Shown here: piece after piece, positions 38,841 through 58,565 of the stretch | Layout: each line of letters begins with the position of its first letter | Numbering within the stretch: position 1 is the first letter of the stretch | Sequence record: MZ358387 | DNA: 64,000 bases | Strand: one strand, 5' to 3' | From: Shigella virus Moo19 | The notes under the pieces: model-generated | Database searches by the model: none | Seen by the model: only the letters and a program-made list of their open reading frames with translations | What the model was told of the DNA's origin: nothing | Translations under genes and position numbers: made by a program

Positions 38841-38872
38841 AAAGCCCCTCTAATGAGGGGCTTTTTTATTTT
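38841..38872. terminator. Bidirectional terminator (aaagcccctc-taat-gaggggctt flanked by A-run and T-run) between convergent + and - transcription units
   Basis: Read directly; T/A tracts on both sides. Confidence 0.7.
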
Positions 38873-41800
38873 AGTTTACCAGATTCATCCAAGGGTTGAG
38901 GTTATGAGCACGTAAGCCCTGACCCAATCCGATAGAGTAATCCAGTCTACCATCAGCAGCAGCCGAGAACAGGTTATCCTGTAATGGCAGACCAACGTTA
39001 CCAAACATGGTAGGAGTTGGAGCCAGCATAGCCATAGCTGCATGAACAGGGTTATTACGAATCATGGACACTGCAACTTTAGTAGAACGAATCTTAAAGT
39101 TATAGAACCACATCAGACCCATGCTTTCCATGTAACCACGGAAACGACCCGGCAGACGGTCATAGTTAATGAACTCTTCGGTAACACGACCCAGAGCTTC
39201 TTCCTTACTCTTACCTTTACGCTTAGTCAGTTCATCATAGATGATTGCTTTAGCAATAAAGTCAGAGTACTCAACCGTCTTCTGGATACCCTGGAACAGA
39301 GCAGTATCCTTAGTGATAAGTGCATAACGACCAGCAGTTTGCAGCTTCTTAGGCAGCTTATCTGCTAAACGCTGCATGTACTCCTGTACCTTACCATCCG
39401 GGATTAACAGGTCATCACGAGAGATACCAGCATCAGCAATAGAAGAGAACTCACCAGCTTCCAGCAAAGGCCAGATACTCATACGCTTATAGCTATCATT
39501 GATGGACTGAATCTCAGCTTTCAGTTTACGAGCCTGGTTCGGATTAGTAGTTGCACGAAGTTCTGCTTCAGCATCAACCTGGCGAAGACGAGACTTCATA
39601 TACTGGTTAATCTCAGCAGTCTTCTGAGGGATACCTTTAGCAATATCCTTAACTGGAACACCACGGGCAACCATCTGATAGAGGTTAGCCAGGAAGTTCA
39701 CAGCAGGAACCACGAGAGACTTGACCACGATTAAGGTCTTAGCCTCACGTACAACCGTCTGAGTGATATTCTCACCCTGCATAAAGTATTTGTATGCACG
39801 GTTGCCAAATACGCCCAGCATTGCTTTCTTGAAGGTATCCAAAGTCTCAGGTGACCAACGAGAGTTACCAGTCCATACATCACCAACAGAAGCAGCACGA
39901 TAACCAAGTGCATCATTCAACATGTCACGACGTACCCACAGTTCACCATTACCAAACAGTGACTCAGCTTTCTGACGAGTTTCTGCATTCATCAGACGCA
40001 TAGCATCAGCAGTAACTGGGTCAAGTTTAGAACCAAGAAGGTTAATGTACTGGCTCTTATTGCTGGTAGAATCTGCCATGTCCTTCTCGTACATAGCGTG
40101 AAGATTTTCAATCAGAGCATCGTTAAACTTCTGGGCTTTAGCTTCTTCTACCTGACGACCTCGCCATACACCAATTGCTTTAGCAAGGTTATCCTCACCA
40201 GCAATGTGAGTCAGCATGTTAGGGTCAATAGAGTGCTCATAAGCAACCACACGACCATTGCCATCATAGATAGGCATCAGTGGTTCATTACCACGTTCAC
40301 CCTTCGCCAGAGCTTTGGTGATACGGTCAACGGAAGGCTTGTCAGTAATACGACCAGCAACCATTGTTCCCATTGTGAAGCCAGTACCAACATCCACACC
40401 ACCAGCAGTATTACGAACGTTCTGGAGAATACCCTGTGAGTATGGAGCACGAGCAGCAACCGGGCTGAAGTAGTAACCACGACTACGAGTACGTTCACCA
40501 GAGCTACCCTGATAACCAGCAATACGAGTGAATGACTTCTCACTCAGTTCGTTAAACTGGCTGTCTTCTGCAACAATCAGGTTAACACCCTGCTTAGTCT
40601 CAGAAGGAATGTAGCCTTTGTAGTGGTTCAAACGAGCACGGTCATCATTCTGTGCTTTACGTTTCTCTTCCACACGCTGGCCTACCAGATAGGAAGTGAC
40701 AAAGTCCATACCTTCGGTTTCAGTCTGAGCCAGGGAAGCTAATGCCTCACGGTCAGCCTGACTCATTGCTTCGATGGCATACAGAGTAATCAGCTTGTCT
40801 AAGGTGTCCACATCAACGGTAGATTTAACGCTGGTACGCTCACCTAACAGACGGGAGATTGCCTCAGCATTACGCAGCAGGTTGTTACCGACAGTACCAT
40901 TAATCATGTACTGAGCCAGTTGCTTAGACTTACGGTTAATCAAAGGCCAGTTACGTCCTGCCTGATTCTGGAGGTCAGCTTCCAGCTTATTAACCAGCTT
41001 ATCCATTTCTTTCTGTGAAGACAGCAGGTCACGAATTTCACCCAGACTCATGGTGTCACGCAGTACAGCAAGGTCAGTTTTACCCATACCAGTGTGCATA
41101 GCTTTCCACTCTGCATCAGTCAGCTTACGGCTGAACTTAGAAGCAATAGTGGTAGGCAGATGCTCACGGAATTGCTGACGGTCAGCCTGTACCTGAGAGC
41201 GAACAGCTTTAATCATGTCATAGACAGAAGCATTCGACTTAGTACGACCTACGATGTCATTAACCAGGTCATAGAAAGGTTGCCATGCTTTTCCCTGGTT
41301 CATTGCAGCCATAACACCCTGTGCAACTTTCTCACCGTTCTTCTCAGTAGCAATAGCAGCTACCAATTGAGCAGCATGAGCAGTTGCCTTAACCAGTGGG
41401 TTCTTAGCATTAGCAGCAACATCACGAGCAGTATCCAGTGTGGCATCAGCCAGACGTTCTACACCATCAACAATATATTGGTTAGCACGGTCAATCATAT
41501 TCCCAGTTGGGGTAGCAACAGAGTCATAGAAGGACTGAGCATTCAGGCTGGATTCCATAATAGTTTCTGCCAGAGCATCAATACCTTCCTGAACGTTAGT
41601 TGCTTTGGTATCACCAGCAACACGCTTGTTCAGGCTATCCATTGCAGCTACGCCAATGTTAGTCAGCATTGCATCAATAGTATTACCGGATGCTTTATCT
41701 GCTTTCATAACAGGCATGTCAGTCAGTACGTTACGTACCTCTTCGCTTACCATTGCCAGACCAACAAAGGTAGGCAGTAAGGAAGAACGACCCTGAGCAT

Positions 41801-44800
41801 CAAACTCAATATTGTTAGCACCCATCAACGTATCGAACTTCTGTTGAGCATAGTAACGGTCAGCAGGGTTAGTGCTGTTCGGGTCTGCCATGAAGTCTTC
41901 TACTTTCAGGTTCTTGGTAACGTGAGTGTAATACTCCTGAGCACGAGCCAGAGCAGCAGGATGAATTGCAGCCTCAGTTGCTAGTGCAGCAACAATGTTG
42001 GTGAACAGACGACGTTCTTGCATGTTCATAGTAAAACCATGCCCCTGAACATCACGAGTTACCTTAACTGCATTCACTACTGCGTCAGAGAATTTACCCT
42101 TACGCATATGTTGCTGTACCGGGTCATTACCCAGGTAGTTCGTAATGAGACGGTCAAAGGTTTGACCCAGTGAAGTAAGACGGTCATTGTTGCCATAAGC
42201 AGTGCTATGGAACAGGGTAGCCTCAGCAGTAACCGGAGCAACCGGAGGCTGTGAACGCATCACTACAGCAGAGTTAAACAGCAGACCGGAGAACATATCT
42301 TCACCGTAAGCAGGGGCTTTCTTACGACCAAAAATGAGGCGTTTAATTGCTTCATAAACATCTTTAACCATCCTGGTAAGAGCAGTGGTTTTCTTCTGCT
42401 TCTTAATCAGTTCATGGTTGGTTAAGCCCCATGCCATGTACTCATTCAGTGCAGCAGCTTTAGCCATTGCTGGGTCAATGAAACCGTTGGACAGATGACC
42501 ATTGATAGTATCCAGTGCATCAGCGTAAGCCTCACGCATAGCCGGAGTATCTTTGGATACATCCAGACTACGGAACTGTTCCATCAGATTCTCGATGTTC
42601 TGTACAGCTTCATTGGTCTGGCCTTGATAGTGGTCAAGTACAGTCTCAAAAGTAGAAGCATGAACCAGTTCATGAATCAAGGTTTCCATTGATGGGCTAA
42701 CCAGGTAGACAGTCTTATCTGCAAAGTTAGTCCAACCATAGATATTACCTGCATTTGCAGCTTCAATATCTTCTGGAGCAGGACGCTCTACGTTACGTTC
42801 CATTGCATACTGGTCAATCTGGTTCACGTTACCGTAAACAACCTTGTAGCCTTTAGCAGCCAGTGACTTCTGAATCTCATTCAGTACAGCAGCCTGTTCA
42901 ACAGGAAGGTTGGACTCTTTAGCCAGTTTGTTAATAGCAGTCTGAGACAGCACACGAACACCAGACTTCAGAGCACGGCCTACAGTATCAAACTTATTAG
43001 TATCGGCTACTGGAGTCTTCTCAGCTTTACGAGCCTCTTTACGAGCCTGCAATTCAGCATCGAATAGCTCATTCAGTTTTGCTACTTGCTGGTCAACAGT
43101 CAGACCATCCAGAGAGATATTACCGTTGTTCACATAAGGGGAACCAACAGCAGCCATCTGGTCAACAGTAGTCTGTACCTGGTTCATTACCTTGTGACGG
43201 ATATCGACACCCAGAGCAATGTTACGCAGGTTACGCTCAATAAGATTAACACCTGCTTTCTCAATCATATCAATCTTATACTGCCTGTCACCATCAACAC
43301 GACTGATATGAGAAAGTTGTTCAAAATCCAAAGCAGAACGGGCAATACTATCAATTGCTTCATCTGATAACTTATTGAAATCTACATTTTTTACAAACTT
43401 AGAGAAGGAGTCATACACATTCTTGATAGGGTTACCCTGCCATGAAGTGTATACAGCTTCGTTAGCCTTACGGCTTGCATCAGTGATGTCATTGATACCG
43501 ATGTTCATACCATCAAAGATTTTGAGAGTATTTTTCGGTGCACCTTTCATAATAGAAAGGGTCTGCATCATCATGCCGTCACCAGTACCAATCGTCATGA
43601 AAGGAATACCAGCAACACCAGCTTGTGACGGTGCATAGATGCTCATTGGCACACGCATACGGTCATCAAAGTTGGTAGCCAGAACCTGGTTAGCAACATC
43701 AGTATTCTCAGAACCAGCAATGTAGAAAGTCTGGGAACCAGTCTCAATCATTGGAGCTAAGTCAGACAGTGAAGCCTGAATATCGTTAAGCTCTTTCTGA
43801 GTTAAGAAGTCACCCTTCTTCCAGTTAGGGTCTTTTTCTTTTTCTGCCAGCTTCTCCTGGACACGTTGCTGGAACATGTCTTGCAGAACCAGAGACTGAA
43901 TCTGGGTAGCTTTCTGAAGCTGTTCAGTGGAGTGCATCAGCCCTTCACCAACAGTATTCTGAATACCCTGTCTCATTGGTTCAACGAAAAAGTGCAGCAT
44001 GTTCTCTTGCAGAGACTTCAGTTGCTCACCTTTGACAGTGAACTTCTGAGGGTCAATCTTGCCAGACATAGCAGTACCAGTGTCTTCAAGAGACAGTTTA
44101 CCTTTACGCATAACTGGAACAGTACCAGTCAATGCTTTCATGTCTTCAATGAAACGACCGAGCATAGCCTCAGCATCGGCCTCAGATGCTGCCTGCTTGC
44201 CGAACATTGCCATAGCCGGGGAAATGTCCGGGTTCTGTGCACGGGCTTGCAGAACGTCGCTGAAGCGTTCGTAGATGGCATCAGTAATTGCACTCACCAT
44301 CTTGCCTGCAATACCACGAGCACCGGAACCATAAATGGTAATGGTCAGTGGGTTCTTGGCAATGCCACGTTTCAGTTCGAGGTTGCCTTCTTCATTGATG
44401 TTATAGTCAGGAATGAACAAGTCCATCAGAGAGGACAGATGATTCATCTGAGTATTAACAGCCGGGTTATTGGCATAGGTATTTCGCAGGTTAGTCAGTG
44501 CAGCTTTCAGACCGTTAGTGGATGCTTCGTACAGGTCAACGCTATCGTCAATAGAACGATGTTCGTTCATCGTCTTACCAGCACGACCAAAGAATAGACC
44601 ACCCTTAGCAGTATTCTGTACCCATTCTTTGGTGAACTTACCACCAGTCATCAGCATCATTGCGTTAATCGGACCGTTGGTTACACCATCAGCCTCAACG
44701 TACAGTGGAGTGTTGAACTTAGACTTGTCTTCAGCATTCAGGTAACGGGCATACTCCATCAGAGCCATGAGAGCTACGAAGGATTTATCACCACCCAATG

Positions 44801-47800
44801 CAGTATTCAGAATCTCAACAGAGTTATCTGGCAGGTTCCCAGTTTTATCGAAATCAACCATCATATCGACAGCAGGTTTCAAATTGCCTTCCAGTGCAGC
44901 AGTCAGTTTTGCTGACATTGCCTCACGAGACATGTTGTGAACCTTGATGCCCAATGCCTGAGCCAAGCCAACCTGGAAATCAGAGAAGGTCTGTGAGTTT
45001 TCATTGGACAGGTCAATAGTAGAAAACGTAGGCAGAATAGCTTCACGAACCAGCTTACTGGACTGAGGATTATTCTTACCAAGCATCTGCATACGACCAA
45101 CACGAGTCATGTTGTAGGCATAGTGGATTGGAGTTTCCAGTCCGTTTTCCTGTGCACGAGTTTGCTCTACCACACTAAACAAGGAATCATAAGCCATAGC
45201 TACTGACAGGTTTTTACCTTCCAGTGACTTAGCAGTATTCACATTCAGCAGTTCAGGATTAAGCGTACCAGCACCCATCAATTCCAGAATCTTGTCACGA
45301 CCCATAGCCTCATAGAAGTTAACCATAGGTTCATGAATACGGAACTCAGTAGCCTGTTCTGCTTTCAGAGCAGCTTTCTGTTCCGGGGTATTCTTAACAG
45401 CAGGGTTGCGTAACTGAGTCTGAGCCACAGAAGGTACGTCGTCACCGAAGTACATTTTCTCTTCTGGTTCTACCAACACAGCTTCTTCAATTGCTGTAGG
45501 GAATTTATTGATAGGGTCATTGTCTGCCAGCTTATCAATGGTATACAGACCAACAGTCTTAGTGGAGTCTGGGTCAATTTCAGAGACATCTAGCATAGTC
45601 TCAGTAACTTCACCTGCTTCAATAAGAGCAGACAGAATCTCAGTTGCCATAGCAACAGGGATACCTTTGGTATAACCCAGTGGTGCATTAGGGTTACGGT
45701 CAAAGCCCCAGTAAGATTCAATTTTCTGAGCCAGTGAGTTAGTAGCTTCAACGAGAGTCTGAGCATTCTCAAACATCTCAACTACACCTTCCGGTAACAG
45801 AGCCTGTTCAATACCAGTAATAGCAGCCACGTCTTTAGCATCTTTAACGGCAGCATTCTGAGTAGCAGTCAGTCGCCATTGCAGACCAGCAAGTACGGCA
45901 GTTTCAAGCAGAGAATCGTTGAACTTAAAGCTATTGCCATCTGGTTCAACAATATTCAGCAGCTTACCACCAACCCAACGGTTAGCTTCAGTGCCCTCAG
46001 CAAAACGCTTACCTACGTTCTTGTTAGACAGGAACTTAGCCAGTCGGTCATTCAGAATGGATTTAATGTTTTCACCCGTGTTCATCAGGTCTTTATAACG
46101 ACCAGATACATCAGGGGTAAGAGCAGTATTCTCACTCTGAGTAAACGTTTCGAAACGTGCATTAGAAGACAGAGCCTGACCAATATCTTTCATTGGAGAC
46201 TCGGAACCAGTGGTACGAGACTTAGGTTCAGCAGGTAATGAGTAAGCAATCTTGAGGTAATTTTTTACCCCAGGCTGGCTGACATCAGTACTCCCAACCA
46301 AATCAGGATAAGCAGCGTCAATACCACTACGAGTGGATTCCACTTCATTAGTAGTTTCCTCAGTATTTTCAGTAACATCCTCGATGCTACCCTCATTGAT
46401 GAGGGTAGCATCCTTTGCCTTTTCGGATTGAGGCTTAGTTACTTTCTCTGGTTCTGCCTTAGACTCAGTAAAAGGAGCACTATTTTCTACCGTCGATTCC
46501 CTATTAGGAGTTACAGTAGGTGCAGCCTCCTGAGTTTGTGCAGGAGTTTCGTCAACTTGATTCACTGGTTCATTAGTCTGTTGGGATTGAGCAGCGTCAA
46601 GATTGCCCTGACGGAACTCTTTAACCACCTGGGCAGCAGGCTTGTCCAGACGTGAATCCAATGAGGTAACATTGATATGAGAAACGTTAAGCTCCGGGTA
46701 AGCCGTAGCAAGTGCATTAGCAATATCAGCTACGGTTTTGGCTTCCAGTCCTACTTGCTGGGCAAACTTAACCGACTTGGTATCGTAAGGATTAACACCG
46801 AGTCCAGTACGACTTCTTACCCATTCACGGGAAGGGGTGAGGGCTTGGTAATGGACAGACTTATTCTTATCCGCATTCCCAGAAATCAGATGTTCATTCA
46901 ACGCTCCGACCTTGTTCTGCATGTGCTGGGCGAACTGCATAAAGTCGCTCAAATAAGCGGAAGCCAAATCGAAGTTACCAGAGTTATACGCAGACCGAAT
47001 GCGTTTAGCATGTTGCAACGCAGAGTACTGGCCTTCATTAGAACGAGACTCGTCGGTTTTAATCTGTTTACCCACAATGTCTTGAGGCCGTAAACCAAGC
47101 TGTTCAGCTTTGGTATCAAACTCACGTGCTCCCTGTAATAGAGCAGCAGCGGATTGCAGGGCAGCACGTTGACGATTGTTCAACGTAATCTTGCCTTCAC
47201 TCGCATGTTTCAGAACCATGTTCACTGAATCAGCGTCCAGTACTTCCGGGCTTACGTCAGCAGCCATTGCTACGTTGTTAGCCTGATTCTGGTCTGCTAC
47301 ATCTTCGGTCACATTCAGATTACCTTGTTCAGCTTGTTCCTGAATCATGGAATGAATGGCACGGAATGCACGAAGTACCTTTGGAGTATTCTGGATGTTA
47401 GCCATCAGACCCGAATACTGGTCGAGCACAGCATTAGCAGGACTATCTTTAGGCAGATTGTTCAGTGCAGCAGGGTCACGGTTAACGAAGTCTTCCATCT
47501 GCATAACCATGTCGTACATATTGGCAGCAGCTTCCATCATCTGGTTCGGGTCTTCAGTAGTGTTAACTACATCAGCCAGTTTCTGGATTACCTGAACTCG
47601 GTCAGTGGAACCGTTAACAGCTTCCTGAACCACAGGAGAAGCATCAGCAAATTCTTCCGGGTTAATACGGGTAGCATTAACCAAATCACTTGCATACTGG
47701 TGTGCAGCAGCCTTCTCTTCAGGAGAGATGTCCATTGCTTCAACAGCATCAGCCATAGTTGCCTGAGCAGTATCTGCTTGTGCAGCAGCTTCCTGAGCAG

Positions 47801-49310
47801 CCTCAGCTACTTTAGCGTCAGCAACAGGAGAAGCCTCTTCATTGCGTCGTGCAACTTCTTCACCACGTTGAACCAGGATATTGGTAATAGGTGAAGCAGC
47901 TTTAGCTACGACATTACCAGCAGCGTTAAGACCAGCCAGGGTAGTACGCAGAGCAGGACCAGCAGCAGCACTTGCAGCTTTAACAGCAGAGCCAGGAGCT
48001 TGAGCAACTCCAGCAGAGCCGAAGCCATAGAGTGCACCCAGACCAGCTTGCTCACCCACACCTTTGAGTGTGTCACGGGTAGCATCAACGTTACTCCGAA
48101 TTGCACGGTTCTGTGCATACTGACCAGTACCAGACTGAATACCTTCTTCCACAGTCTCACGAAGCATGTTGGAACCAGCACCAGCAAGTGAACCTACTTT
48201 CAGTGGATTCAGTTCAAACTTGGATACCAGTGGACCCGTTGCAGCAGCAACCGGAGCAGTGATAGCAGCAGCATCAATACCTGTTTCAGAAGCAGTCTGA
48301 CGACGAGCTTCATCTGGAGAAAGACCATCTTTGATATGTTGCTGATAAACAGGAGACTTAGCAGCCAGTTCTTCATGAGACATTTTCATAATCTCAGAAG
48401 CAGTTTGCTGATAAGCACCACCAGCTTCCATTGTGCCAATAGCAATGGCAGCAGGAGCAACCTTAGAGGCAGCATTAACCAACTGTGCAGGACGATGGCC
48501 TAATTCAGCAGCAAGTGCAATTGCACGAGCAGCTTTTTCACCACCCATTACAGCACGACCTAATGCAGCAACCCCTTTAATAAGAGGACCACCCGTAAAC
48601 AGTGAGCCTACTCCTTCGCTCAATCCATCTGTTGCAGCCATACCAGTGTCAAGAGTGTTGGCAACAGAATCATAAGCGTCACGGCCAATACGAGAAAGAG
48701 AAGCGACCAAATCACTCTCGCCATCTTTAATATCCTGTTCGTATAAACGCTGGTTTTTCTGAGCAGATAGCTGGTTCTGGTTCTGAACTACTTTACGGGA
48801 AAGATTTAAAGCATCAGACTGAAGACCATGAACACCTTCATTCAACCAGTCCATGCCACTAGCTATGGTAGCACCAGCATTATCGTTGATAAGACCTGTT
48901 CCAAGAGAAGCAATGCCCCCAAGGGTATTAGCAACACCAAGACCAACACCAGAAAGAGAATCACCAATTGCTTCTGCATTCGTTCTCTCTCTGGATAAGT
49001 CCTGACGAACAGAATCGGCTGCATTAGCACGGCTATTAAGAATACGAAGACCTTCTTCGGTTCCATACTTAGCAATAAGTTCCATTGGGGAGGCTTGAGT
49101 AAAATCAGCCTGAAGTGAACCTGGTTCGAATGCACCAATGCCGAGATTACCTACCCGACCTGTTTGAAGGTTATAGGCAGTATCTGGGGTGAGTTGGAAA
49201 GGGTTATACCCTTCAGCAGCTTGCTTCTGGGAGGTTGCAGTAGAGACATCGACTTGCTTAGCATTAGTGATGCTGTCTGCGAAACCTGCCAGTCTGTCAA
49301 ATGTTGACAT
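38871..49310 (-). CDS. Virion-encapsidated giant RNA polymerase (N4 vRNAP gp50-like), ~3479 aa
   Basis: Size; T7-like motifs in central part (YVEADGVTNG; RGIAKNPLTITIYGSG; KIFDGMNIG), the two Asp 392 residues apart; ATG 49310 has aggaaa RBS (track start 49352 is GTG). Confidence 0.85.
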   Translation of the reverse strand: MSTFDRLAGFADSITNAKQVDVSTATSQKQAAEGYNPFQLTPDTAYNLQTGRVGNLGIGAFEPGSLQADFTQASPMELIAKYGTEEGLRILNSRANAADSVRQDLSRERTNAEAIGDSLSGVGLGVANTLGGIASLGTGLINDNAGATIASGMDWLNEGVHGLQSDALNLSRKVVQNQNQLSAQKNQRLYEQDIKDGESDLVASLSRIGRDAYDSVANTLDTGMAATDGLSEGVGSLFTGGPLIKGVAALGRAVMGGEKAARAIALAAELGHRPAQLVNAASKVAPAAIAIGTMEAGGAYQQTASEIMKMSHEELAAKSPVYQQHIKDGLSPDEARRQTASETGIDAAAITAPVAAATGPLVSKFELNPLKVGSLAGAGSNMLRETVEEGIQSGTGQYAQNRAIRSNVDATRDTLKGVGEQAGLGALYGFGSAGVAQAPGSAVKAASAAAGPALRTTLAGLNAAGNVVAKAASPITNILVQRGEEVARRNEEASPVADAKVAEAAQEAAAQADTAQATMADAVEAMDISPEEKAAAHQYASDLVNATRINPEEFADASPVVQEAVNGSTDRVQVIQKLADVVNTTEDPNQMMEAAANMYDMVMQMEDFVNRDPAALNNLPKDSPANAVLDQYSGLMANIQNTPKVLRAFRAIHSMIQEQAEQGNLNVTEDVADQNQANNVAMAADVSPEVLDADSVNMVLKHASEGKITLNNRQRAALQSAAALLQGAREFDTKAEQLGLRPQDIVGKQIKTDESRSNEGQYSALQHAKRIRSAYNSGNFDLASAYLSDFMQFAQHMQNKVGALNEHLISGNADKNKSVHYQALTPSREWVRSRTGLGVNPYDTKSVKFAQQVGLEAKTVADIANALATAYPELNVSHINVTSLDSRLDKPAAQVVKEFRQGNLDAAQSQQTNEPVNQVDETPAQTQEAAPTVTPNRESTVENSAPFTESKAEPEKVTKPQSEKAKDATLINEGSIEDVTENTEETTNEVESTRSGIDAAYPDLVGSTDVSQPGVKNYLKIAYSLPAEPKSRTTGSESPMKDIGQALSSNARFETFTQSENTALTPDVSGRYKDLMNTGENIKSILNDRLAKFLSNKNVGKRFAEGTEANRWVGGKLLNIVEPDGNSFKFNDSLLETAVLAGLQWRLTATQNAAVKDAKDVAAITGIEQALLPEGVVEMFENAQTLVEATNSLAQKIESYWGFDRNPNAPLGYTKGIPVAMATEILSALIEAGEVTETMLDVSEIDPDSTKTVGLYTIDKLADNDPINKFPTAIEEAVLVEPEEKMYFGDDVPSVAQTQLRNPAVKNTPEQKAALKAEQATEFRIHEPMVNFYEAMGRDKILELMGAGTLNPELLNVNTAKSLEGKNLSVAMAYDSLFSVVEQTRAQENGLETPIHYAYNMTRVGRMQMLGKNNPQSSKLVREAILPTFSTIDLSNENSQTFSDFQVGLAQALGIKVHNMSREAMSAKLTAALEGNLKPAVDMMVDFDKTGNLPDNSVEILNTALGGDKSFVALMALMEYARYLNAEDKSKFNTPLYVEADGVTNGPINAMMLMTGGKFTKEWVQNTAKGGLFFGRAGKTMNEHRSIDDSVDLYEASTNGLKAALTNLRNTYANNPAVNTQMNHLSSLMDLFIPDYNINEEGNLELKRGIAKNPLTITIYGSGARGIAGKMVSAITDAIYERFSDVLQARAQNPDISPAMAMFGKQAASEADAEAMLGRFIEDMKALTGTVPVMRKGKLSLEDTGTAMSGKIDPQKFTVKGEQLKSLQENMLHFFVEPMRQGIQNTVGEGLMHSTEQLQKATQIQSLVLQDMFQQRVQEKLAEKEKDPNWKKGDFLTQKELNDIQASLSDLAPMIETGSQTFYIAGSENTDVANQVLATNFDDRMRVPMSIYAPSQAGVAGIPFMTIGTGDGMMMQTLSIMKGAPKNTLKIFDGMNIGINDITDASRKANEAVYTSWQGNPIKNVYDSFSKFVKNVDFNKLSDEAIDSIARSALDFEQLSHISRVDGDRQYKIDMIEKAGVNLIERNLRNIALGVDIRHKVMNQVQTTVDQMAAVGSPYVNNGNISLDGLTVDQQVAKLNELFDAELQARKEARKAEKTPVADTNKFDTVGRALKSGVRVLSQTAINKLAKESNLPVEQAAVLNEIQKSLAAKGYKVVYGNVNQIDQYAMERNVERPAPEDIEAANAGNIYGWTNFADKTVYLVSPSMETLIHELVHASTFETVLDHYQGQTNEAVQNIENLMEQFRSLDVSKDTPAMREAYADALDTINGHLSNGFIDPAMAKAAALNEYMAWGLTNHELIKKQKKTTALTRMVKDVYEAIKRLIFGRKKAPAYGEDMFSGLLFNSAVVMRSQPPVAPVTAEATLFHSTAYGNNDRLTSLGQTFDRLITNYLGNDPVQQHMRKGKFSDAVVNAVKVTRDVQGHGFTMNMQERRLFTNIVAALATEAAIHPAALARAQEYYTHVTKNLKVEDFMADPNSTNPADRYYAQQKFDTLMGANNIEFDAQGRSSLLPTFVGLAMVSEEVRNVLTDMPVMKADKASGNTIDAMLTNIGVAAMDSLNKRVAGDTKATNVQEGIDALAETIMESSLNAQSFYDSVATPTGNMIDRANQYIVDGVERLADATLDTARDVAANAKNPLVKATAHAAQLVAAIATEKNGEKVAQGVMAAMNQGKAWQPFYDLVNDIVGRTKSNASVYDMIKAVRSQVQADRQQFREHLPTTIASKFSRKLTDAEWKAMHTGMGKTDLAVLRDTMSLGEIRDLLSSQKEMDKLVNKLEADLQNQAGRNWPLINRKSKQLAQYMINGTVGNNLLRNAEAISRLLGERTSVKSTVDVDTLDKLITLYAIEAMSQADREALASLAQTETEGMDFVTSYLVGQRVEEKRKAQNDDRARLNHYKGYIPSETKQGVNLIVAEDSQFNELSEKSFTRIAGYQGSSGERTRSRGYYFSPVAARAPYSQGILQNVRNTAGGVDVGTGFTMGTMVAGRITDKPSVDRITKALAKGERGNEPLMPIYDGNGRVVAYEHSIDPNMLTHIAGEDNLAKAIGVWRGRQVEEAKAQKFNDALIENLHAMYEKDMADSTSNKSQYINLLGSKLDPVTADAMRLMNAETRQKAESLFGNGELWVRRDMLNDALGYRAASVGDVWTGNSRWSPETLDTFKKAMLGVFGNRAYKYFMQGENITQTVVREAKTLIVVKSLVVPAVNFLANLYQMVARGVPVKDIAKGIPQKTAEINQYMKSRLRQVDAEAELRATTNPNQARKLKAEIQSINDSYKRMSIWPLLEAGEFSSIADAGISRDDLLIPDGKVQEYMQRLADKLPKKLQTAGRYALITKDTALFQGIQKTVEYSDFIAKAIIYDELTKRKGKSKEEALGRVTEEFINYDRLPGRFRGYMESMGLMWFYNFKIRSTKVAVSMIRNNPVHAAMAMLAPTPTMFGNVGLPLQDNLFSAAADGRLDYSIGLGQGLRAHNLNPWMNLVN

Positions 49311-49372
49311 AGCTTGTTTCCTGTTCAAACTTATATCTATAAGAGAACTCACTGTACATTAAGTGAGGGTAA

Positions 49373-49401: not shown

Positions 49402-51366
49402 TTACTGATTTTGTCTTGGTTGCATATACTCTGGCAACCCTTGTGCTTGTCTCATATATCGAGCAGCACGCTCTCTGTTTTCTTTCTCAACTGCCCGGTC
49501 TACGGAAGCCTGAGATTGAAAGTTTCTCGGAGCCAGATTCTGTGGGTCAGCTTGAACCTGTCCTTGTGCAGCTTGCAACATTGCAGCAGCTTTCTGTACT
49601 GCTTCCTGACGTGATGGAAGCAACGCAGTGAGTGCAGTCTGACCTGTAGCAATCTTATTCTGAGTGTTATTGAGTTGAGCAACAGCAGCGTCATAAGCTG
49701 TCTGTGCAGCCTGGATATTTTGAATAGCCTGAGCATTACCCAGATTACGAACACTTGCTTCCAGTGGTTCACCACGCTTCAATCCCTCAACCATCTGGTC
49801 TACAGCACGGTCATTAAGACGCAAGCCATTACCAGCTTCATTACTAATGAATGGGTTTAGTGCATCAATACCACGACTAATATAGCCTTCCGGTACGTTG
49901 GTCATTGCACGTTGAATAACGTTAGCAGCCATCGCCGGGGACACATTAGCACGTTGACTAATATCATTGATACGAGCCACAACCCAATTCTTATCAGCAC
50001 CCTTAAAGTCACCTTCCAGAAGTTTGGAAGCAACTTCACCTACAGTAGAGGTGTCATTCAGAGAACGTAAATAATCAGGGGTAATACCACCTGCATTATT
50101 CTCCATCAGACGAGTACCAATCATACCAGAAGCAAGAGTAGATACAGCCTGATTACCCTGAGCATCCTGAACCAGAGCAAGAGGATTAGCTCCTACTTCA
50201 GCCTGAGCAATCACAGGTTTAATCTGTTCCCAGGTCATATCTTTGTAAGCACCTGGAGAAGAGTTAGGCAGAGCAGCCCAGGTATCTTTCAAGTTGCCAT
50301 TCTTACGAGCTTCAAAGATAGCCTTACCAATCTTCTCCTGATTCTCAGCAGACATTGGCTGACTAGCCCAGTTATCTCCCAGTACTTTAGGTGCAAAGTC
50401 CTGAAGAGTAGCCTGATTAATCTGGAATGCACCAACAGGGGAAGCACCCAGATTAGTCTTCATACCATCCTGATGTTTGACCACATCACCAATGCTCATC
50501 TGAGTAATTGGAGTAGAGGTTGGGGTAAAACCATACGTTGTATCATATGGAGAACCAGCACGAGTACCAGCAGTTCCTGGGGCAGAAGGAGCACCAACCC
50601 CATTGCCATAGACACCTGGGTAAGCCTGAGCAAGTAAACCTTGCAGACGAGCCTGAGCTACTGGGGACAGTTGCTTACTATATGCCTCAGCCAGGATACG
50701 AGCATCGTTGGGGTTCTCAGCACCACGAGTAATCTGAGACATAACACCCATAGCAGCCTGAGCATCAGCATCATTACGCATCTGAGTACCCAAGTTGAAA
50801 CGAGATTGGTTGTTACCAATACCACCCCGTTCCTGACCTTGCAGACGACCCATAATATCAAGAGCCTGGTCAGCAGGAAGAGTAGACAGAGCATCCCCTA
50901 CCTGACTTTGTGCAGCCTGAATCTGTTTAGGGTCACCAGACTGGTAAGCCATAGCCAGTTGACGAACAGCAGGGGAAGCAGCATCCATTGCAGCGTCAGT
51001 AGTCTTAAGACGACCAAAACGGTAATCATTATAGGCATTAGTCCCAGCCTGACCTTCCTGGTTCAACAGAGTGCCAGCACGGTTATCCAGATTTTCCAGA
51101 GTACGGGTACTAATCAGATTGGGGTCAACACCCTCAAACAGAGCACCAGATGCCAGAGCATTACGGTACGCTGTAGGGTCTTGATAACGCATAGCGTTCA
51201 TCATGACAGCACTGCCAGCATCCTGACGAGCAGCGTTCTGGAAGTTACCCAGTGCATCACTCAAGCCAGTAGTGGCATTACCAATCATGTTGCCAAATGT
51301 GCGAATGCTATCACCAACTCCAGAGAAGTTAGGTGTATCAACATTACGCCAAGTAATTTGAGCCAT
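49402..51366 (-). CDS. Virion structural protein (N4 gp51 position), Gly/Ala/Gln-rich
   Basis: ORF track; aggaaa RBS; late-operon position. Confidence 0.5.
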   Translation of the reverse strand: MAQITWRNVDTPNFSGVGDSIRTFGNMIGNATTGLSDALGNFQNAARQDAGSAVMMNAMRYQDPTAYRNALASGALFEGVDPNLISTRTLENLDNRAGTLLNQEGQAGTNAYNDYRFGRLKTTDAAMDAASPAVRQLAMAYQSGDPKQIQAAQSQVGDALSTLPADQALDIMGRLQGQERGGIGNNQSRFNLGTQMRNDADAQAAMGVMSQITRGAENPNDARILAEAYSKQLSPVAQARLQGLLAQAYPGVYGNGVGAPSAPGTAGTRAGSPYDTTYGFTPTSTPITQMSIGDVVKHQDGMKTNLGASPVGAFQINQATLQDFAPKVLGDNWASQPMSAENQEKIGKAIFEARKNGNLKDTWAALPNSSPGAYKDMTWEQIKPVIAQAEVGANPLALVQDAQGNQAVSTLASGMIGTRLMENNAGGITPDYLRSLNDTSTVGEVASKLLEGDFKGADKNWVVARINDISQRANVSPAMAANVIQRAMTNVPEGYISRGIDALNPFISNEAGNGLRLNDRAVDQMVEGLKRGEPLEASVRNLGNAQAIQNIQAAQTAYDAAVAQLNNTQNKIATGQTALTALLPSRQEAVQKAAAMLQAAQGQVQADPQNLAPRNFQSQASVDRAVEKENRERAARYMRQAQGLPEYMQPRQNQ

Positions 51367-51378
51367 GATGGTTTCCTA

Positions 51379-51834
51379 TTAGCGAGAAAGTTTATTCTTC
51401 TCAATGTACTCGTCAGCAGTAGATTGGTCACGGTTTTCTGCAACAGCACGACTACGTGCACGGTCTTCTAACGCAGTGTTATAAGACTTAATCGAGTTAT
51501 TAAGGTTCGTGTTAGTAATGTCCTTAGTAAAGGACAACTGGTCTTTGGCTAACTTGTTAGCCTGGAAACCACCATAGATATTAGCCAATGAACCAAGAGC
51601 ACCAAGTCCCAATTGGAAGGTTGGAATATTCAAGCCTAAGCCCTGAGATGCCCCACCAAACAGAGAGGTATTACCAGCAGAGGAAGTACCTGGGGAAGTG
51701 TAATCTCCCAAAGTCATGCCCGGCTGATAATTCATTGCTGGAGTATTAAAGTTTTGGTTCTGGTTGTTACCAGATAACCAGGACATCCCACCAGCATTTT
51801 GAGAGGGATTCCCTGTAAGGAAGTTCAAATCCAT
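51379..51834 (-). CDS. Virion protein (N4 gp52 position), Gly/Asn-rich
   Basis: ORF track; aggag RBS. Confidence 0.45.
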   Translation of the reverse strand: MDLNFLTGNPSQNAGGMSWLSGNNQNQNFNTPAMNYQPGMTLGDYTSPGTSSAGNTSLFGGASQGLGLNIPTFQLGLGALGSLANIYGGFQANKLAKDQLSFTKDITNTNLNNSIKSYNTALEDRARSRAVAENRDQSTADEYIEKNKLSR

Positions 51835-51847
51835 AAGGATTCTCCTG

Positions 51848-54490
51848 TTAATCTTTCAGTGTTAAGTCTAAGGTCATGTCAGAGAAATTGGTAATCATAT
51901 CCAGAGACATACCAGCAATATCGGAACCAGTTAAGGTAGTACGAGAGAGGAAGGTATCCAGCGACTCGATAGAGACAAACTGCATTGGGTCAATTACACC
52001 CATACCATCTGTACCGAACATCTCTTCATACTTCTTATTAACAGCCATCATATCAGTATTGTACTGCTGCATGGTTTGCTCTGCCTGACGAATGATATCA
52101 GCAGTAGAGGCATTAATGTACTGAGTAATCCCATTACCTACAGCAGAGGTAAGCTGCATGATATTCTGAGCATTCATCATGTTAGCTGCCATAGTAGACA
52201 TAGTAGTACCTGTAGCCATTGCAGTACCCACGTTCATTGCAACTACAGAGGCAATAGCAGCTACGATGAAACCAATCTTATCACCGAACAGTTGAGTAGA
52301 AGCCAACTGAAGAATAGAGATAAGAACCATTGCAGCAATGGCATTTGCCACAGCACCTACAATTACAGCAGCTAAGCCAGCAAAGCCTAATGCAGCCCCT
52401 ACAGCACCGTAAGCACCCAGGATACCAGCACCACCTGCACCAGCAGTAAATACTGATACAACCACAGCAACCACAACTACTACGATTTTAAATGTCCCAG
52501 TTTGATACCACTTCTGCTTAACCTTCTTGTATGAGTTCATTACAAGATAGGAGCAAGCAGTAGCTAACTGAGTACTATGAGTCAGTGACATAGCACGATA
52601 AATATTGGTATGCAGTGGGATAAGGAATCCTGACTCCTCAGCATCACCCATAGCCTCTGCTACATCAATGCCAACAGACTTGTTCTTATACACCCGGTTA
52701 TTATGATACAGACCCAGAACACGAAGACGGCGATAGGTGTTCTTACCATCCTGCCATAACATTTCATACTCCTGCATGTTATAGACAGTATTGGTTTTTA
52801 CTAAGTCACCCGTTTGATTATCTTTACGGAAATTGCTACGAGTAAGCTGAACATCACCAGCATAGCGAGTTCTTAGCTGGCTCTGCTTTGCACCTTCCCA
52901 TGCTTGACCTGTATGAATAGTTTCAAATACGAAGTTCCACTCAATGGTCATATCATACTTGTAACCCTTATCACTGCTAACCCTAAAGCTACGCTTAGGA
53001 ATTACAGGATACTGTGGGGGTTCTGGTGGATTACCAGCAGAATGGTCACCCTCTTTCCACCACTTATAATATGCCTCAGCAGCGGCATTAGCATCAGCAA
53101 ACCCCTGGATAACAGCTTCCAATGTCGGATATTCTGGGTCAGGTGGGAATGACTCAGTAGCCATCTGGAAGAATCGATAAATATACTCTTTAGCCGTATC
53201 TTCCGGTGTATTGAGTGCACAACCGAATGTACCGTAGATGTATTGAATATCCCCAATTTTGTCGTTCTTTTTTAATTCAGTAACGACATCATCAAGCTTC
53301 CCTCCGGTTGCCTTCTTCATTGCTTTTTTGCAATCAGGGTAGATAGGGTCATTCTCTACCCAACGTTTATCATTACGAATAGGAATGAATGGATAGAAGC
53401 GGTTATCAGACGCTGGGGTATCAAATAAAGCGTCCAGCACAGGATTACCATCCCCCTGCTTATAGATAAACAAATGAGGTTCATCAGTAGCAGTCATGGT
53501 TGTGTTGTTACTGGTGGACTGAGATACATAGAAGTTAACCAAAGATTCTTTGGTCACTTCAGTAATTGTAGTAATGGTTACCCCACCAACAGTTTCAGTC
53601 TTAGTATCGGTAGTGGTTTGCTTATCCACTCTCCCACGTTTAGATTGAGTCATCACACGGTTATCAATGATGATAGTAGTGCCATCAGTGTTAAGAGTGA
53701 AGCCTCGTTTATAAACATTGACCCAGGAAGTCCAGTTCTGGGTAGTAGTAACAGGAGTAGTTGTTACTTCATCGGGACGACCATCACTGTACTTCTTAGT
53801 TACCTTGGTGGTGGTAGTCAGGGAAGTACTTTCTGCCTTATCTGTTTCAGACACAGTAGACCATAGAAAGGTAGACGGTAAATCACCCTCAGTAGGATAA
53901 ATATCTTCTGGTCTTACTACAGGTGGTTCAACAGTAGGTTGCCTGTAATAGCTGTAATCCACATAGAGGTAAAGAGCACCCGGAACAAAGTTCTCAGGGA
54001 AGAAGGAGATATCCGTTCCCCCATCCTGAGAAATCATGGTGATTTCGTTGGTATCCTCATCAATATCAATTTCGAATTGTTCCATAATTCGTTCCGGATA
54101 ATTTTCGTAAAGATACTGGTCACACCAATACTCAAAGTCAGCAAACCCAATCTCAGCAGATTGCACGAAAGTAGTGCTGTCTGCCTGAGTAGGTAACTGG
54201 CTGGCAACCACATCTGGGTCAACCTTAGCCAGTACACCTAATGAACTTGCTGCCATGCCTACCTTGTCATCGTAATGGTCTTTGCTCCATGAAGAGAACA
54301 AACGCATACGTACACCCGGACCATTCAGATAACTGCTTTGAATAGTGTCTGCCATAGTAAATCCTGTGTTGGAAACAATGTTCCCAATCACCACGGTCTT
54401 CATATAGTTAGGACGTTGGGCAATATCCCCAGCCAGGTTATACACTGAGGATGCTACGTAAATTTTTGTTTTCCTACTGAACAATCCCAT
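51848..54490 (-). CDS. Large virion protein (880 aa) with long C-terminal hydrophobic Gly/Ala/Val-rich region; candidate ejection/internal protein
   Basis: ORF track; ~100-aa hydrophobic stretch (VVVVVAVVVSVFTAGAGGAGILGAYGAVGAALGFAGLAAVIVGAV...). Confidence 0.5.
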   Translation of the reverse strand: MGLFSRKTKIYVASSVYNLAGDIAQRPNYMKTVVIGNIVSNTGFTMADTIQSSYLNGPGVRMRLFSSWSKDHYDDKVGMAASSLGVLAKVDPDVVASQLPTQADSTTFVQSAEIGFADFEYWCDQYLYENYPERIMEQFEIDIDEDTNEITMISQDGGTDISFFPENFVPGALYLYVDYSYYRQPTVEPPVVRPEDIYPTEGDLPSTFLWSTVSETDKAESTSLTTTTKVTKKYSDGRPDEVTTTPVTTTQNWTSWVNVYKRGFTLNTDGTTIIIDNRVMTQSKRGRVDKQTTTDTKTETVGGVTITTITEVTKESLVNFYVSQSTSNNTTMTATDEPHLFIYKQGDGNPVLDALFDTPASDNRFYPFIPIRNDKRWVENDPIYPDCKKAMKKATGGKLDDVVTELKKNDKIGDIQYIYGTFGCALNTPEDTAKEYIYRFFQMATESFPPDPEYPTLEAVIQGFADANAAAEAYYKWWKEGDHSAGNPPEPPQYPVIPKRSFRVSSDKGYKYDMTIEWNFVFETIHTGQAWEGAKQSQLRTRYAGDVQLTRSNFRKDNQTGDLVKTNTVYNMQEYEMLWQDGKNTYRRLRVLGLYHNNRVYKNKSVGIDVAEAMGDAEESGFLIPLHTNIYRAMSLTHSTQLATACSYLVMNSYKKVKQKWYQTGTFKIVVVVVAVVVSVFTAGAGGAGILGAYGAVGAALGFAGLAAVIVGAVANAIAAMVLISILQLASTQLFGDKIGFIVAAIASVVAMNVGTAMATGTTMSTMAANMMNAQNIMQLTSAVGNGITQYINASTADIIRQAEQTMQQYNTDMMAVNKKYEEMFGTDGMGVIDPMQFVSIESLDTFLSRTTLTGSDIAGMSLDMITNFSDMTLDLTLKD

Positions 54491-54495
54491 GTTAC

Positions 54496-55335
54496 TTACC
54501 CGTTAAGATTATTGTTACGTTTCAGGGTAGTCAGAACATCATCGATGCTGGAGTTAGTGAATCCATTAGGTGGAGTCAGACCTTCATCAATGGTTTTCTG
54601 AGTAATCCATGCGTCAGTAAACAGCTTGGATGCTTTAACTTCTGCATCACGCTGGTAGCTAGTAATCTGCTGAGTATACAGTTCTTTCTGTTTACCAATA
54701 GAACCAGAAACAGTAGCACCGTCAGACCGTTTATCCAGAGTCTGTGCACGTTGTGCTTCAGTCTGCTCGATAAGCAGTTTGAGTTGCTGAGGCAGAGTCT
54801 GTTCTACATTGAACAATGCAGCACAGTAAGTCTCAGATTCAGTAGAGAGTTTGAGCTTGGTAAGAGCATATTCACTCTTAGCATTCAGTGCCTGGAACTT
54901 AGCCAGCACGTACTGAGCTTTAGAAGTAGCCAATGCAACACGAGCACTAACAGCCTGAATCTGTGCCATAGCAGCAGCCCAGTAAGCCTGGTCACGACCT
55001 AACAGATACTGAGTGGCATTGCCCATACAGGTCTCTACAATAGCAATATATGCTTTGGTGTATTCACCACCAGTAATACGACCTTCCTTGAACTCCTGCT
55101 TAAGGTGAGCAGCAGCAGAAGCCATCAGTGCATCGAATGTACCGGAACCACCAACAACACGGGTAGTCAGGTCTTCATTAGTAAGTCGGGTTACTTCTGC
55201 AAAGATAGGGGAACCGTCCCCACCTGGGATATCCCATTCAGGACCGGACATATCAATATCGGGTAGGGCAAAGTCCTCGCCCTCAGTTAATGCTAACAAC
55301 AGTCGGTTAGCTTCTACCTCTGCACCACATGACAT
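54496..55335 (-). CDS. Virion protein (N4 gp54 position)
   Basis: ORF track; ATG 55335 has gagga RBS (track start 55350 lacks one). Confidence 0.45.
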
Positions 55336-55351
55336 GATGTATTTCCTCATG

Positions 55352-57329: not shown

Positions 57330-58565
57330 TTAAAGTCCACCGGGATTCGGCAGTTTAGCGAACTCTTCATCACTCATAGCGAGTGGATTAATGAAACGTT
57401 CTACTTTTTTAGGTGCAGCTCGACTTGGCGAAGCAGCACTTGCTTGTTCAGAGTGGGTCACCGTAGGTTTCGGTTTAACCACTCGTGTTGCTACTGCTGC
57501 ACGTTGAGCAGTAACTTCCGGCTTAGGTTCAACAGGTTTACCAGCCAGATGGTTAAATGCACCTTGTTTAGCAAGAGCATCACCAACATAGTTATAAGCC
57601 TGAATAAACGGTGTTCCGGCTGGAATCTGACCTAACATCTGAAGACGGTTAATCTCATTCGAGATAATGTCATAAATGCCATTTTCACGTTGAGACTGAA
57701 TCGTCTGGATTAAGCCACGATTCTCAAACAGTGCATTCTTACTGGCTTCATCCCATGTCTGAGAAATTACACCTAAAGTAGCTTGTCCTTCTGGGGTAGA
57801 CTTTAAATCGTCCAGTTCGGTTGCAAATGCTGCTTCAGTGTCAGATACACGGTGATTGCCTTTCTGGTAATTGATTTCCTCATCCATATTAATATCGAGA
57901 GGGTCAGTACCAGAATCTTTAAGCAACTTACGAATGGCTTCTGGGTTCTTCTTATCTAAGTCAATTAGATAAGACAGCTTGTCCTCATCCATCAGTCCGT
58001 TGTTTTCTAACATCAGCATCACCTTACGGTAAGGCTGTAATGCTTGCATCTTACGAGTGTAGTTAGCACCCATCTGCATCAGGCTAATGGCCTCCTCCGG
58101 TGATTGGGGAGTAATCATTTTACCGTTAGCTTTAAATGGAGCCATCAAACGTTCGTAACCAGCTTTATAGTCGAAGTCGGTTGGCAGACCTTCAGACTGT
58201 TTATCCTCTTCTGTCTTACTCTGGCCGGAGTCTTCAGTAGCAGGAGCAGCTTTAGTAATCGGCTTACCGTTACTATCAACTTCATTGGCGTCAACTTTAT
58301 CATCAACTTTATCAGAAGTTAAATTTTTTGCTGCATCTTCATCTACTTCAGACTGCTCAGAGTTATCTTCTTCTGGTTCGTCCGTTGTGGTTGTTTCTTC
58401 AGATTGGGTAGTAACTACTTCTTCTTGTTCAGTAGTAACGTCTTCTTCTGGGTTGTTCTGAGTGTCTTGCTCAACTTCCTCTGAAGGAGGAACAGACATA
58501 TTCAGAATCTCATCATCCGACATTGCGAGAATGTCGGAAGCCTGTTTAGTGGCTTCCGTAGTCAT
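57330..58565 (-). CDS. Acidic protein, possible scaffolding protein
   Basis: Very acidic N-terminal 140 aa; located between portal-side genes and capsid gene. Confidence 0.4.
   Translation of the reverse strand: MTTEATKQASDILAMSDDEILNMSVPPSEEVEQDTQNNPEEDVTTEQEEVVTTQSEETTTTDEPEEDNSEQSEVDEDAAKNLTSDKVDDKVDANEVDSNGKPITKAAPATEDSGQSKTEEDKQSEGLPTDFDYKAGYERLMAPFKANGKMITPQSPEEAISLMQMGANYTRKMQALQPYRKVMLMLENNGLMDEDKLSYLIDLDKKNPEAIRKLLKDSGTDPLDINMDEEINYQKGNHRVSDTEAAFATELDDLKSTPEGQATLGVISQTWDEASKNALFENRGLIQTIQSQRENGIYDIISNEINRLQMLGQIPAGTPFIQAYNYVGDALAKQGAFNHLAGKPVEPKPEVTAQRAAVATRVVKPKPTVTHSEQASAASPSRAAPKKVERFINPLAMSDEEFAKLPNPGGL

Follow-up and report, generated by a model that had tools for sequence, protein, structure and literature searches.

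A gene on the minus strand of a 64,000-nucleotide stretch of the Shigella virus Moo19 genome (record MZ358387; the whole stretch is hereafter the window) very probably codes for the plug protein in the tail of an N4-like podovirus, an ortholog of N4 gp53 and DEV gp74, with its long hydrophobic stretch as the cork of the tail tube. Most likely, the hydrophobic stretch is such a cork rather than a membrane channel. The present analysis shows orthology and synteny, finds the hydrophobic domain and the two knot segments conserved, and provides the predicted fold; by homology, the Moo19 protein would act as the N4 plug does, in the same position and the same copy number. The tail plug role is already known for N4, and the assignment made here is a transfer by orthology that adds no new biology.

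The open reading frame starts with an ATG at position 54490 and ends with a stop codon at 51848–51850 (Table 1). The coordinates and the length of 880 aa given in the preliminary description are exact, and the strand is the minus strand; a plus-strand reading of the same interval was dropped, as it contains many stop codons. The spacer between the tail tube gene and the ATG of the plug gene is 5 nt, and that between the plug gene and the gp52-like gene is 13 nt. The gene order on the minus strand, portal and then, further along, the capsid protein (MCP), gp55-like protein, tail tube, plug, gp52-like protein, gp51-like protein and virion RNA polymerase (vRNAP), is the same as that of N4 gp59 through gp50, and each neighbour is orthologous to its N4 counterpart. 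The capsid protein is identical to PDB 9D7Z chain A (9d7z_A) at 401 of 401 residues.

Table 1. Features of the plug gene and its neighbours in the window
Feature	Coordinates	Strand	Basis
Whole gene, N4 gp53 ortholog (Moo19 gp70), very probable tail plug protein, 880 aa	51848..54490	-	ORF translation, phrog_2220, PDB 9yft_FA, N4 gp53 identity
Knot, N-terminal half, residues 29–56, short predicted helices 29–40 and 46–55	54323..54406	-	N4 alignment, AF2
Thr-rich 'beta-feather' protrusion, residues 211–333, four antiparallel strands (predicted)	53492..53860	-	AF2
Gly/Ala/Val hydrophobic domain, residues 667–760, four TM-like apolar segments	52211..52492	-	Composition, hydropathy, family conservation
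Knot, C-terminal half, residues 669–715 (N4 gp53 670–716)	52346..52486	-	N4 alignment, N4 cryo-EM
C-terminal tail, residues 761–880	51851..52210	-	N4 description, AF2 pLDDT below 50
Tail tube protein (N4 gp54 / Moo19 gp71), 279 aa, upstream neighbour	54496..55335	-	PDB 9d80_C
N4 gp52 ortholog, 151 aa, downstream neighbour, predicted outer-membrane pore ejection protein	51379..51834	-	PDB 9yf4_OA, 8vxq_A
N4 gp51 ortholog, 654 aa, predicted periplasmic tunnel ejection protein	49402..51366	-	PDB 11mn_A
Giant virion RNA polymerase, 3493 aa as listed from a putative GTG start	38871..49352	-	ORF listing, annotation in related phages

The upstream neighbour matches PDB 9d80_C, 'Tail protein' (E = 1e-181; query residues 6–284 on chain residues 1–279), as well as N4 Gp54 of PDB 9lc0/9yft; its ORF comprises 284 codons, and the protein starts at the second Met (residue 6). 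This protein is the dodecameric tube that the plug would seal. The 151-aa protein matches PDB 9yf4_OA, '16.5 kDa protein' (E = 3e-45; 71% identity to N4 gp52), and DEV 8vxq_A, 'N4 gp52-like', while the 654-aa protein matches PDB 11mn_A, '66 kDa protein' (E = 3e-140; 53% identity to N4 gp51). The vRNAP has a computed mass of 379.8 kDa, compared with 378 kDa for Moo19 gp67, and the records of related phages annotate its counterpart as virion RNA polymerase. The plug gene had been placed next to the vRNAP gene; it does not adjoin it directly, since the 151-aa and 654-aa genes intervene. Of a gene that probably corresponds to Moo19 gp81, the window contains the C-terminal 323 codons, at its end (63032–64000); apart from these codons, the genes for tailspike gp82 and side appendage gp81 lie past the window end.

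In a phmmer search of PDB sequences, the 880-residue protein (computed mass 97.5 kDa) matches N4 'Gp53' (9yft_FA, PDB 9YFT) with E = 0, its residues 1–878 aligning on 1–883, and the two proteins are 55.1% identical over 875 aligned positions. The protein also matches phrog_2220 (positions 1–847 of 850; E = 2e-300) and, in the phmmer search, DEV 'N4 gp53-like protein' 9ZE4_M (E = 2e-18), the latter most strongly at query residues 580–876, the hydrophobic and C-terminal part (E = 1e-13). A Pfam search returned no family for the plug protein, nor for most of its neighbours. Relatives carry the database labels 'membrane protein', '4 transmembrane helical domains containing protein', 'TMhelix containing protein' and 'baseplate wedge protein'. 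In the 2024 paper on DEV, gp74 is not mentioned, and 'gp53' is the name of DEV's own long tail fibre.

The peptide quoted in the preliminary description (FKIVVVVVAVVVSVFTAGAGG...) begins at residue 667. Gly, Ala and Val make up 57% of residues 667–760 (94 aa), compared with 23% of the whole protein, and the segment contains only three charged residues; charge-free runs extend over residues 669–736 (68 aa) and 739–797 (59 aa). The highest Kyte-Doolittle mean over 100 aa reaches 1.69, compared with 0.38 ± 0.14 (maximum 1.12) in 5000 shuffles, about 9 SD above. Chance or a compositional artefact was therefore rejected, because the observed mean exceeds that of every shuffle. Thus, the exceptionally long Gly/Ala/Val stretch described earlier is real, and it is C-terminal as described, although its place is the final quarter of the protein and not the C-terminal third.

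Each of the 56 aligned relatives has the hydrophobic domain, at an unchanged relative position, with a conservation of 0.55–0.72 compared with a mean of 0.43, and with near-invariant glycines at G689, G692, G698, G702 and G712. Distant tblastn matches end at residue ~668. They probably end there through the low-complexity filter of BLAST and not through a loss of the domain, since it is seen throughout both the HMMER alignments and the 56-sequence alignment. In the cryo-EM structure of the N4 virion, gp53 residues 29–56 and 670–716 form a 'hydrophobic knot' in which six short helices cork the gp54 12-mer tube at its base (PMC13434306, Nat Commun 2026). Both knot segments align gap-free between the two phages, with identities of 68% (29–56) and 72% (670–716), and the following segment (717–775) is 68% identical.

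An AF2 monomer model, calculated from an input alignment from which the N4 sequence row was left out, is confident for residues 6–680 (pLDDT mostly 70–93) and falls below pLDDT 50 for residues 683–880; the model did not reproduce the hydrophobic knot (pLDDT below 50 there). The predicted feather is composed of strands at residues 211–234, 241–267, 272–301 and 304–333, each of 24–30 residues, with pLDDT of about 85–93. N4 gp53 likewise bears a feather-shaped beta-sheet protrusion (PMC13434306), and this region is the least conserved (38% identical to N4 gp53). In the PDB library used for Foldseek (cut-off April 2026), which lacks 9YFT, the model has one significant match, the plug of the DEV tail-gating complex (9ze4_M; E = 8e-17, probability 1.0), with a TM-score of 0.55 on the target and 12% sequence identity. 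Weak fold matches to secretins, porins, aerolysin and ssRNA-phage maturation proteins were rejected (low probability, TM-scores below 0.1), and we take the feather, with its long beta-strands, to be their cause.

The preliminary description took the product for a virion protein and named virion proteomics as a check, and published data bear this out. Moo19 gp70 (96 kDa, 'similar to N4's gp53') is detected by MS in CsCl-purified virions (PMC11654681), and for N4 gp53 there are both a model within the virion and an LC-MS detection (PMC13434306). In N4, gp53 is the single-copy plug of a 'tail-gating complex' with a 12:6:1 mismatch (PMC13434306), and in DEV, gp74 plugs the tail tube at a 12:1 interface seen at 8.5 Å (PMC12892993, mBio 2026). 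Furthermore, deletion of the DEV plug holder gp56 leads to DNA leakage (PMC12892993). The Moo19 structure paper (2024) reports weak, unassigned 'plug' density at the distal part of the tail tube (PMC11654681), for which our result gives a candidate identity; the tail-tip structure itself does not assign this protein.

On the model of N4, a single plug molecule would be seated where the 12-subunit tail tube opens distally. Specifically, residues ~669–715 and 29–56 would fold up as short helices packed tightly into a bundle that excludes water and is wedged like a cork in the tube lumen, while the last ~165 residues would go up the lumen beside the gp52-like pore protein, of which copies are stored there. 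The C-terminal tail (residues 761–880) probably runs up the tail-tube lumen; its N4 counterpart, the last ~160 residues of gp53, is not resolved and is placed 'in the tail lumen' (PMC13434306). In this position, the plug would retain the pressurised DNA and the ejection proteins inside the particle. Receptor binding by a laterally attached tail protein may pull the plug sideways, and displacement of the plug would let the gp52-like protein, the gp51-like protein and the vRNAP exit and build a trans-envelope channel. The fate proposed for the plug in a real infection follows that seen on N4 particles whose DNA was released in vitro.

The preliminary description had instead proposed an ejection protein that forms the channel for the vRNAP; the reading in which its hydrophobic helices insert in the host membrane or membranes and form a channel for the vRNAP and DNA is one that we consider very unlikely. 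Four 19-residue segments (669–687, 690–708, 706–724 and 741–759) are TM-like by a simple Hessa-type scale (summed dG of -0.7 to +2.3); the literature describes N4 gp53 as 'predicted to contain TMDs', and relatives are labelled as membrane or TM-helix proteins. The segment would also lie in the tail lumen on the exit path, in a part of the N4 protein whose last ~160 residues are not seen, and siphovirus tape-measure proteins offer an analogy of hydrophobic segments that are stored in the tube and then inserted in a membrane. The topology check thus agrees with membrane spanning in length and hydropathy, but it gives no pore-lining face: the hydrophobic moments of the four segments (muH 0.06–0.16) indicate that they are uniformly apolar, and for this reason a single copy could hardly line an aqueous pore for DNA or for an unfolded 380-kDa protein. 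Moreover, the single copy of N4 gp53 is mostly outside the tube, and emptied N4 particles, with DNA released in vitro, still carry it on the tail (PMC13434306). Channel activity in lipid bilayers is demonstrated not for gp53 but for N4 gp52, the outer-membrane pore, and gp51, the periplasmic tunnel, which form decameric or nonameric rings with a lumen of ~22 Å (PMC13434306). Searches of Pfam, PDB sequences and Foldseek PDB found no sequence or fold similarity of the plug protein to known ejection proteins or ejectosome subunits, a group that comprises N4 gp52, gp51 and gp50, DEV gp73, gp72 and gp71, and T7 gp14-16. The idea of an ejection role survives in part, as the protein belongs to the apparatus that controls vRNAP ejection, but as a cork of which the N4 ortholog stays on emptied particles and not as the former of the channel through which the polymerase enters. 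The predicted channel formers are the 151-aa gp52-like and 654-aa gp51-like proteins, encoded between the plug gene and the vRNAP gene.

A dual use of the domain, as a cork in the virion that later enters the outer membrane (or, during assembly, the inner one) and serves as an anchor or 'ripcord' but not as a channel, is improbable. The unfolded domain would then anchor the tail tip or nucleate insertion of the gp52 pore. The hydropathy fits membrane insertion, an exposed apolar surface of 90 residues would be unstable in water, and a proposal by the N4 authors makes the plug C-terminus a 'ripcord' for luminal gp52 (PMC13434306). In addition, the C-terminal block at residues 842–859 (ESLDTFLSRTTLTGSDIA) retains E842, R850, T851 and G855 as invariant residues in the family alignment, although it is not seen in the structure, which implies a conserved interaction. 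Contact with a membrane is, however, a conjecture, and the proposal of the N4 authors that the plug rebinds to empty tails via refolding of the knot into the tube (PMC13434306) suggests that the knot is folded or refoldable; a chaperone or co-assembly could equally well keep the protein, with its four TM-like helices, in solution after its synthesis. The specific version in which, on triggering, the ~90-residue apolar knot and the C-terminal ~165 residues leave the tube, enter the outer membrane, and nucleate or anchor the gp52 pore has a correspondingly low probability. If it were true, the plug would represent tape-measure-like membrane insertion in a podovirus by one asymmetric protein.

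TM-like segments in a late gene could also suggest a holin-like membrane protein of lysis lying among the late structural genes, and an N4 rapid-lysis line carried gp53 Q98R. The rebuilt Q98R, however, did not give rapid lysis, the lysis cassette (spanin, endolysin and holin) consists of separate genes at 61252–62621, and a protein of 880 aa with a folded soluble part of ~660 aa and a virion location is unlike a holin. A role in lysis was rejected, being effectively refuted by the N4 structure and genetics, and its probability is negligible.

Identification of the domain as a cork indicates that a phage structural protein can have a ~90-residue 'multi-pass transmembrane' signature that is a water-excluding tube cork and not a membrane domain. 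It corrects a natural misreading, and several database records of relatives bear labels such as 'membrane protein', '4 transmembrane helical domains' or 'baseplate wedge protein'. By the same result, it turns attention to the 151-aa and 654-aa neighbours as the likely real channel formers.

The tape-measure proteins of siphoviruses (lambda gpH and T5 pb2) are present in multiple copies and are ejected, and they probably insert in the envelope. They resemble the plug protein in having long apolar Gly/Ala-rich segments stored in the tail-tube lumen, but N4 gp53 has one copy and is retained by the particle, and no homology to them was detected. In other podoviruses, the P22 gp26 and Sf6 needles close the distal tail channel so that DNA does not leak out, and engagement of the receptor displaces them. 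These needles are trimeric coiled-coils that match the channel symmetry and are released; they do the same sealing job as the plug, whereas the plug has the form of a globular monomer that carries a hydrophobic cork, and searches of Pfam and Foldseek PDB found the two similar in neither sequence nor fold.

DEV gp74 (PDB 9ZE4 chain M), which is held by the gp56-gp55-gp54 receptor-binding fibre, is the only significant match to the predicted fold in the Foldseek PDB library and shows the 12:1 tube interface in DEV, but it comprises 740 aa and lacks the beta-feather. In N4, the plug is held by domains D9–D10 of one gp65 sheath protomer. The published Moo19 virion list instead contains tailspike gp82 and side appendage gp81 and no N4-type gp65 sheath (PMC11654681), so that the holder and the trigger of the Moo19 plug would differ from those of N4; gp81 is a candidate for the lateral partner of the plug. 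The plug itself differs from N4 gp53 in its poorly conserved feather region; the two proteins are otherwise alike in length (880 versus 885 aa), in an end-to-end identity of 55%, and in their place between the tail tube gene and gp52, and the N-terminal block, both knot segments, the Thr-rich feather region, the hydrophobic domain and the C-terminal block of N4 gp53 are all present in the Moo19 protein.

The interval assigned to the 880-aa protein in the preliminary description matches one minus-strand ORF exactly; a plus-strand reading was rejected, as it contains stops throughout. The hydrophobic stretch is real and far above chance, with a mean Kyte–Doolittle (KD) value of 1.69 for the best 100-residue stretch versus 0.38 ± 0.14 (maximum 1.12) in 5000 shuffles. 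Specifically, residues 667–760, beginning at the first residue of the hydrophobic peptide quoted originally, are 57% Gly, Ala and Val, versus 23% over the full length; of these 94 residues, 3 are charged and 13 polar. There are two charge-free runs, 669–736 (68 aa) and 739–797 (59 aa), and simple summation of published Hessa-type scale values gives four TM-like 19-mers (669–687, 690–708, 706–724 and 741–759). The domain is C-terminal, as described, but falls in the final quarter of the sequence rather than the final third. In an alignment of 56 family members (about 30–91% identity), every relative has it at an equivalent place along the protein, with a KD of 1.3–2.0 for the best 90 aa, its conservation is 0.55–0.72 versus a mean of 0.43, and G689, G692, G698, G702 and G712 are nearly invariant.

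A Pfam search with the 880-aa protein matched no family, and PHROGs places it over its full length in phrog_2220, annotated as function unknown. In a PDB sequence search, 'Gp53' of 9YFT (885 aa), the phage N4 plug, aligned end to end (E=0), while 'N4 gp53-like protein' of 9ZE4 gave a weaker match (E 2e-18), mainly over residues 580–876. Overall identity to N4 gp53 is 55%, differing by region: 89% for N4 residues 1–28, 68% for 29–56, 38% for the Thr-rich segment 201–340, 72% for 670–716 and 68% for 717–775. The AlphaFold2 model, built from 55 sequences (mean pLDDT 72), is confident for residues 6–680 and falls below pLDDT 50 for residues 683–880. It contains an N-terminal helix pair at 29–40 and 46–55 and, in 211–333, four strands of 24–30 residues matching the 'feather', a beta-sheet protrusion of the plug. 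A Foldseek search of the PDB returned one significant match, the plug chain 9ze4_M of the DEV asymmetric tail-gating complex (E 8e-17, probability 1.0), and all hits among viral models were podovirus proteins that are uncharacterised, in some cases annotated as 'TMhelix containing protein'. Sequence, gene order, fold and the presence of the two knot segments place the protein in the N4 gp53/DEV gp74 plug family, whose members are variously labelled 'baseplate wedge protein', 'putative tail protein' and 'membrane protein'. The most conserved block, MGLFSxKTKIYVASSVYNLAGD at the N-terminus, has invariant F4, V12, Y17, N18 and G21 (mean conservation 0.79 over residues 1–20), and is recognisable even in DEV gp74.

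In N4, one copy of gp53 plugs the 12-subunit gp54 tail tube, with a globular core and the feather outside the tube; residues 29–56 and 670–716 come together as a 'hydrophobic knot', six short helices that close the tube base like a cork, and the last ~160 residues vanish into the lumen (PMC13434306, Nat Commun 2026). The plug is held by one gp65 sheath protomer, giving a 12:6:1 mismatch, and is seen on full and empty particles alike. The N4 ejection proteins are instead gp52 (150 aa) and gp51 (644 aa), which show channel activity in planar bilayers; the models make gp52 the outer-membrane pore and gp51 the periplasmic tunnel, with the N-terminal domain of the virion RNA polymerase (vRNAP) exiting after them (PMC13434306). 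The homologous DEV gp74 caps the tube at a 12:1 interface and is held by the gp56–gp55–gp54 fibre, and gp56 deletion causes DNA loss (PMC12892993, mBio 2026). Moo19 gp70 (96 kDa, 'similar to N4's gp53'; computed mass of the 880-aa protein, 97.5 kDa) was found by mass spectrometry in purified virions (PMC11654681, Sci Adv 2024), documenting the proposed virion location. The hydrophobic domain is already explained by published work. The ejection channel originally proposed from it is contradicted by the single copy, the retention on emptied N4 particles, the channel activity demonstrated for the proteins encoded next to it and the absence of an amphipathic face (muH 0.06–0.16), and we regard it as very unlikely.

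We predict with considerable confidence that Moo19 uses the 880-aa protein as its tail plug, with the hydrophobic domain as the cork. Short helices rich in small residues (Gly, Ala) would pack very closely against the N-terminal helix pair, forming a water-excluding bundle inside the lumen, with the C-terminal tail among stored gp52 copies. On receptor engagement the plug would be shifted sideways, after which the proteins of the ejectosome would exit. A secondary role as membrane anchor or 'ripcord' draws on the C-terminal part, which lacks density in the N4 structure yet has invariant residues; we consider it improbable, though slightly less so than a channel. Within that part, also modelled at low confidence, residues 842–859 (ESLDTFLSRTTLTGSDIA) hold 4 of the family's 24 invariant columns (E842, R850, T851 and G855) and look like a conserved interaction motif.

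The Moo19/B2 paper states that B2, an Ithacavirus, lacks a gp53 homolog (PMC11654681). In the Ithacavirus Salmonella phage FSL SP-058 (KC139517.1, 47563–49248), tblastn gives a distant match to residues 1–668 of the query at 28% identity; judged by sequence, B2-type phages probably carry a divergent plug of the N4 gp53 family.

The 880-aa gene lies in a block of late genes from an N4-like podovirus (Schitoviridae). The minus-strand order is portal, 120 aa, 411 aa, major capsid protein, 212 aa, tail tube, 880-aa gene, 151 aa, 654 aa and vRNAP, so that two genes separate the 880-aa gene from vRNAP, to which it had been placed next. This order is that of N4 gp59 through gp50, and identity between each protein and its N4 counterpart is 53–89%. 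A lysis role is excluded by N4 genetics, and the window has a separate lysis cassette; we give this reading practically no weight.

Features of the Moo19 late-gene region
Feature	Coordinates	Strand	Length	Remarks
Portal		minus	760 aa	Pfam SU10_portal
Major capsid protein		minus	401 aa	
vRNAP		minus	3493 aa	
N4 gp51 ortholog	49402-51366	minus	654 aa	69.5 kDa
Putative plug	51848-54490	minus	880 aa	ATG at 54490
Conserved block	51914-51967	minus		residues 842-859
N-terminal block	54427-54490	minus		residues 1-21
Tail-tube ORF	54496-55350	minus	284 aa (listed)	probable start, second ATG at 55335
N4 gp57 ortholog	57330-58565	minus	411 aa	
Lysis cassette	61252-62621			
Open frame	63032-64000	minus	323 codons	open up to window edge

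The capsid protein is identical to 9d7z_A (401/401), and the tail tube matches 9d80_C (E 1e-181) from the second Met of its ORF, the solved structure (279 aa, MSCGAEV...) starting five codons downstream of the listed start. Together with the neighbouring 9d82/9d83 chains, of which one carries the label 'B2 Capsid', these entries seem to represent the Moo19 and B2 structures described in PMC11654681. The window is therefore Moo19 or a phage nearly identical to it. The best DNA match to the window in the phage collection is only ~77%, and the best match of the 880-aa protein elsewhere is 91%. The 654-aa protein matches PDB 11mn_A, '66 kDa protein' (E 3e-140, 53% identity), and by sequence is the N4 gp51 ortholog, hence the ejection protein predicted to form the periplasmic tunnel. 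In the Moo19 paper, 'gp68, 70 kDa' stands under 'Adaptor' in Table 1, although the adaptor modelled there has 234 residues (PMC11654681); the entry looks like a mislabel, the 27-kDa gp83 being the likelier adaptor. The 411-aa protein is labelled 'tail length tape measure protein' by PHROG and RefSeq, an implausible name, given that the phage is short-tailed and its tail has been fully modelled without this protein.

The frame at the window edge, misleadingly listed as a 306-aa GTG ORF, matches phrog_6117 'colanic acid degradation' (positions 470–708 of 711) and probably encodes the C-terminal portion of Moo19 gp81, a G7C-gp66-like trimeric side appendage and candidate plug holder. Unlike N4, Moo19 has in its published virion list the tailspike gp82 and the trimeric side appendage gp81, not a gp65 sheath; speculatively, by analogy, the asymmetric gp81 appendage could act like the lateral fibre of DEV.
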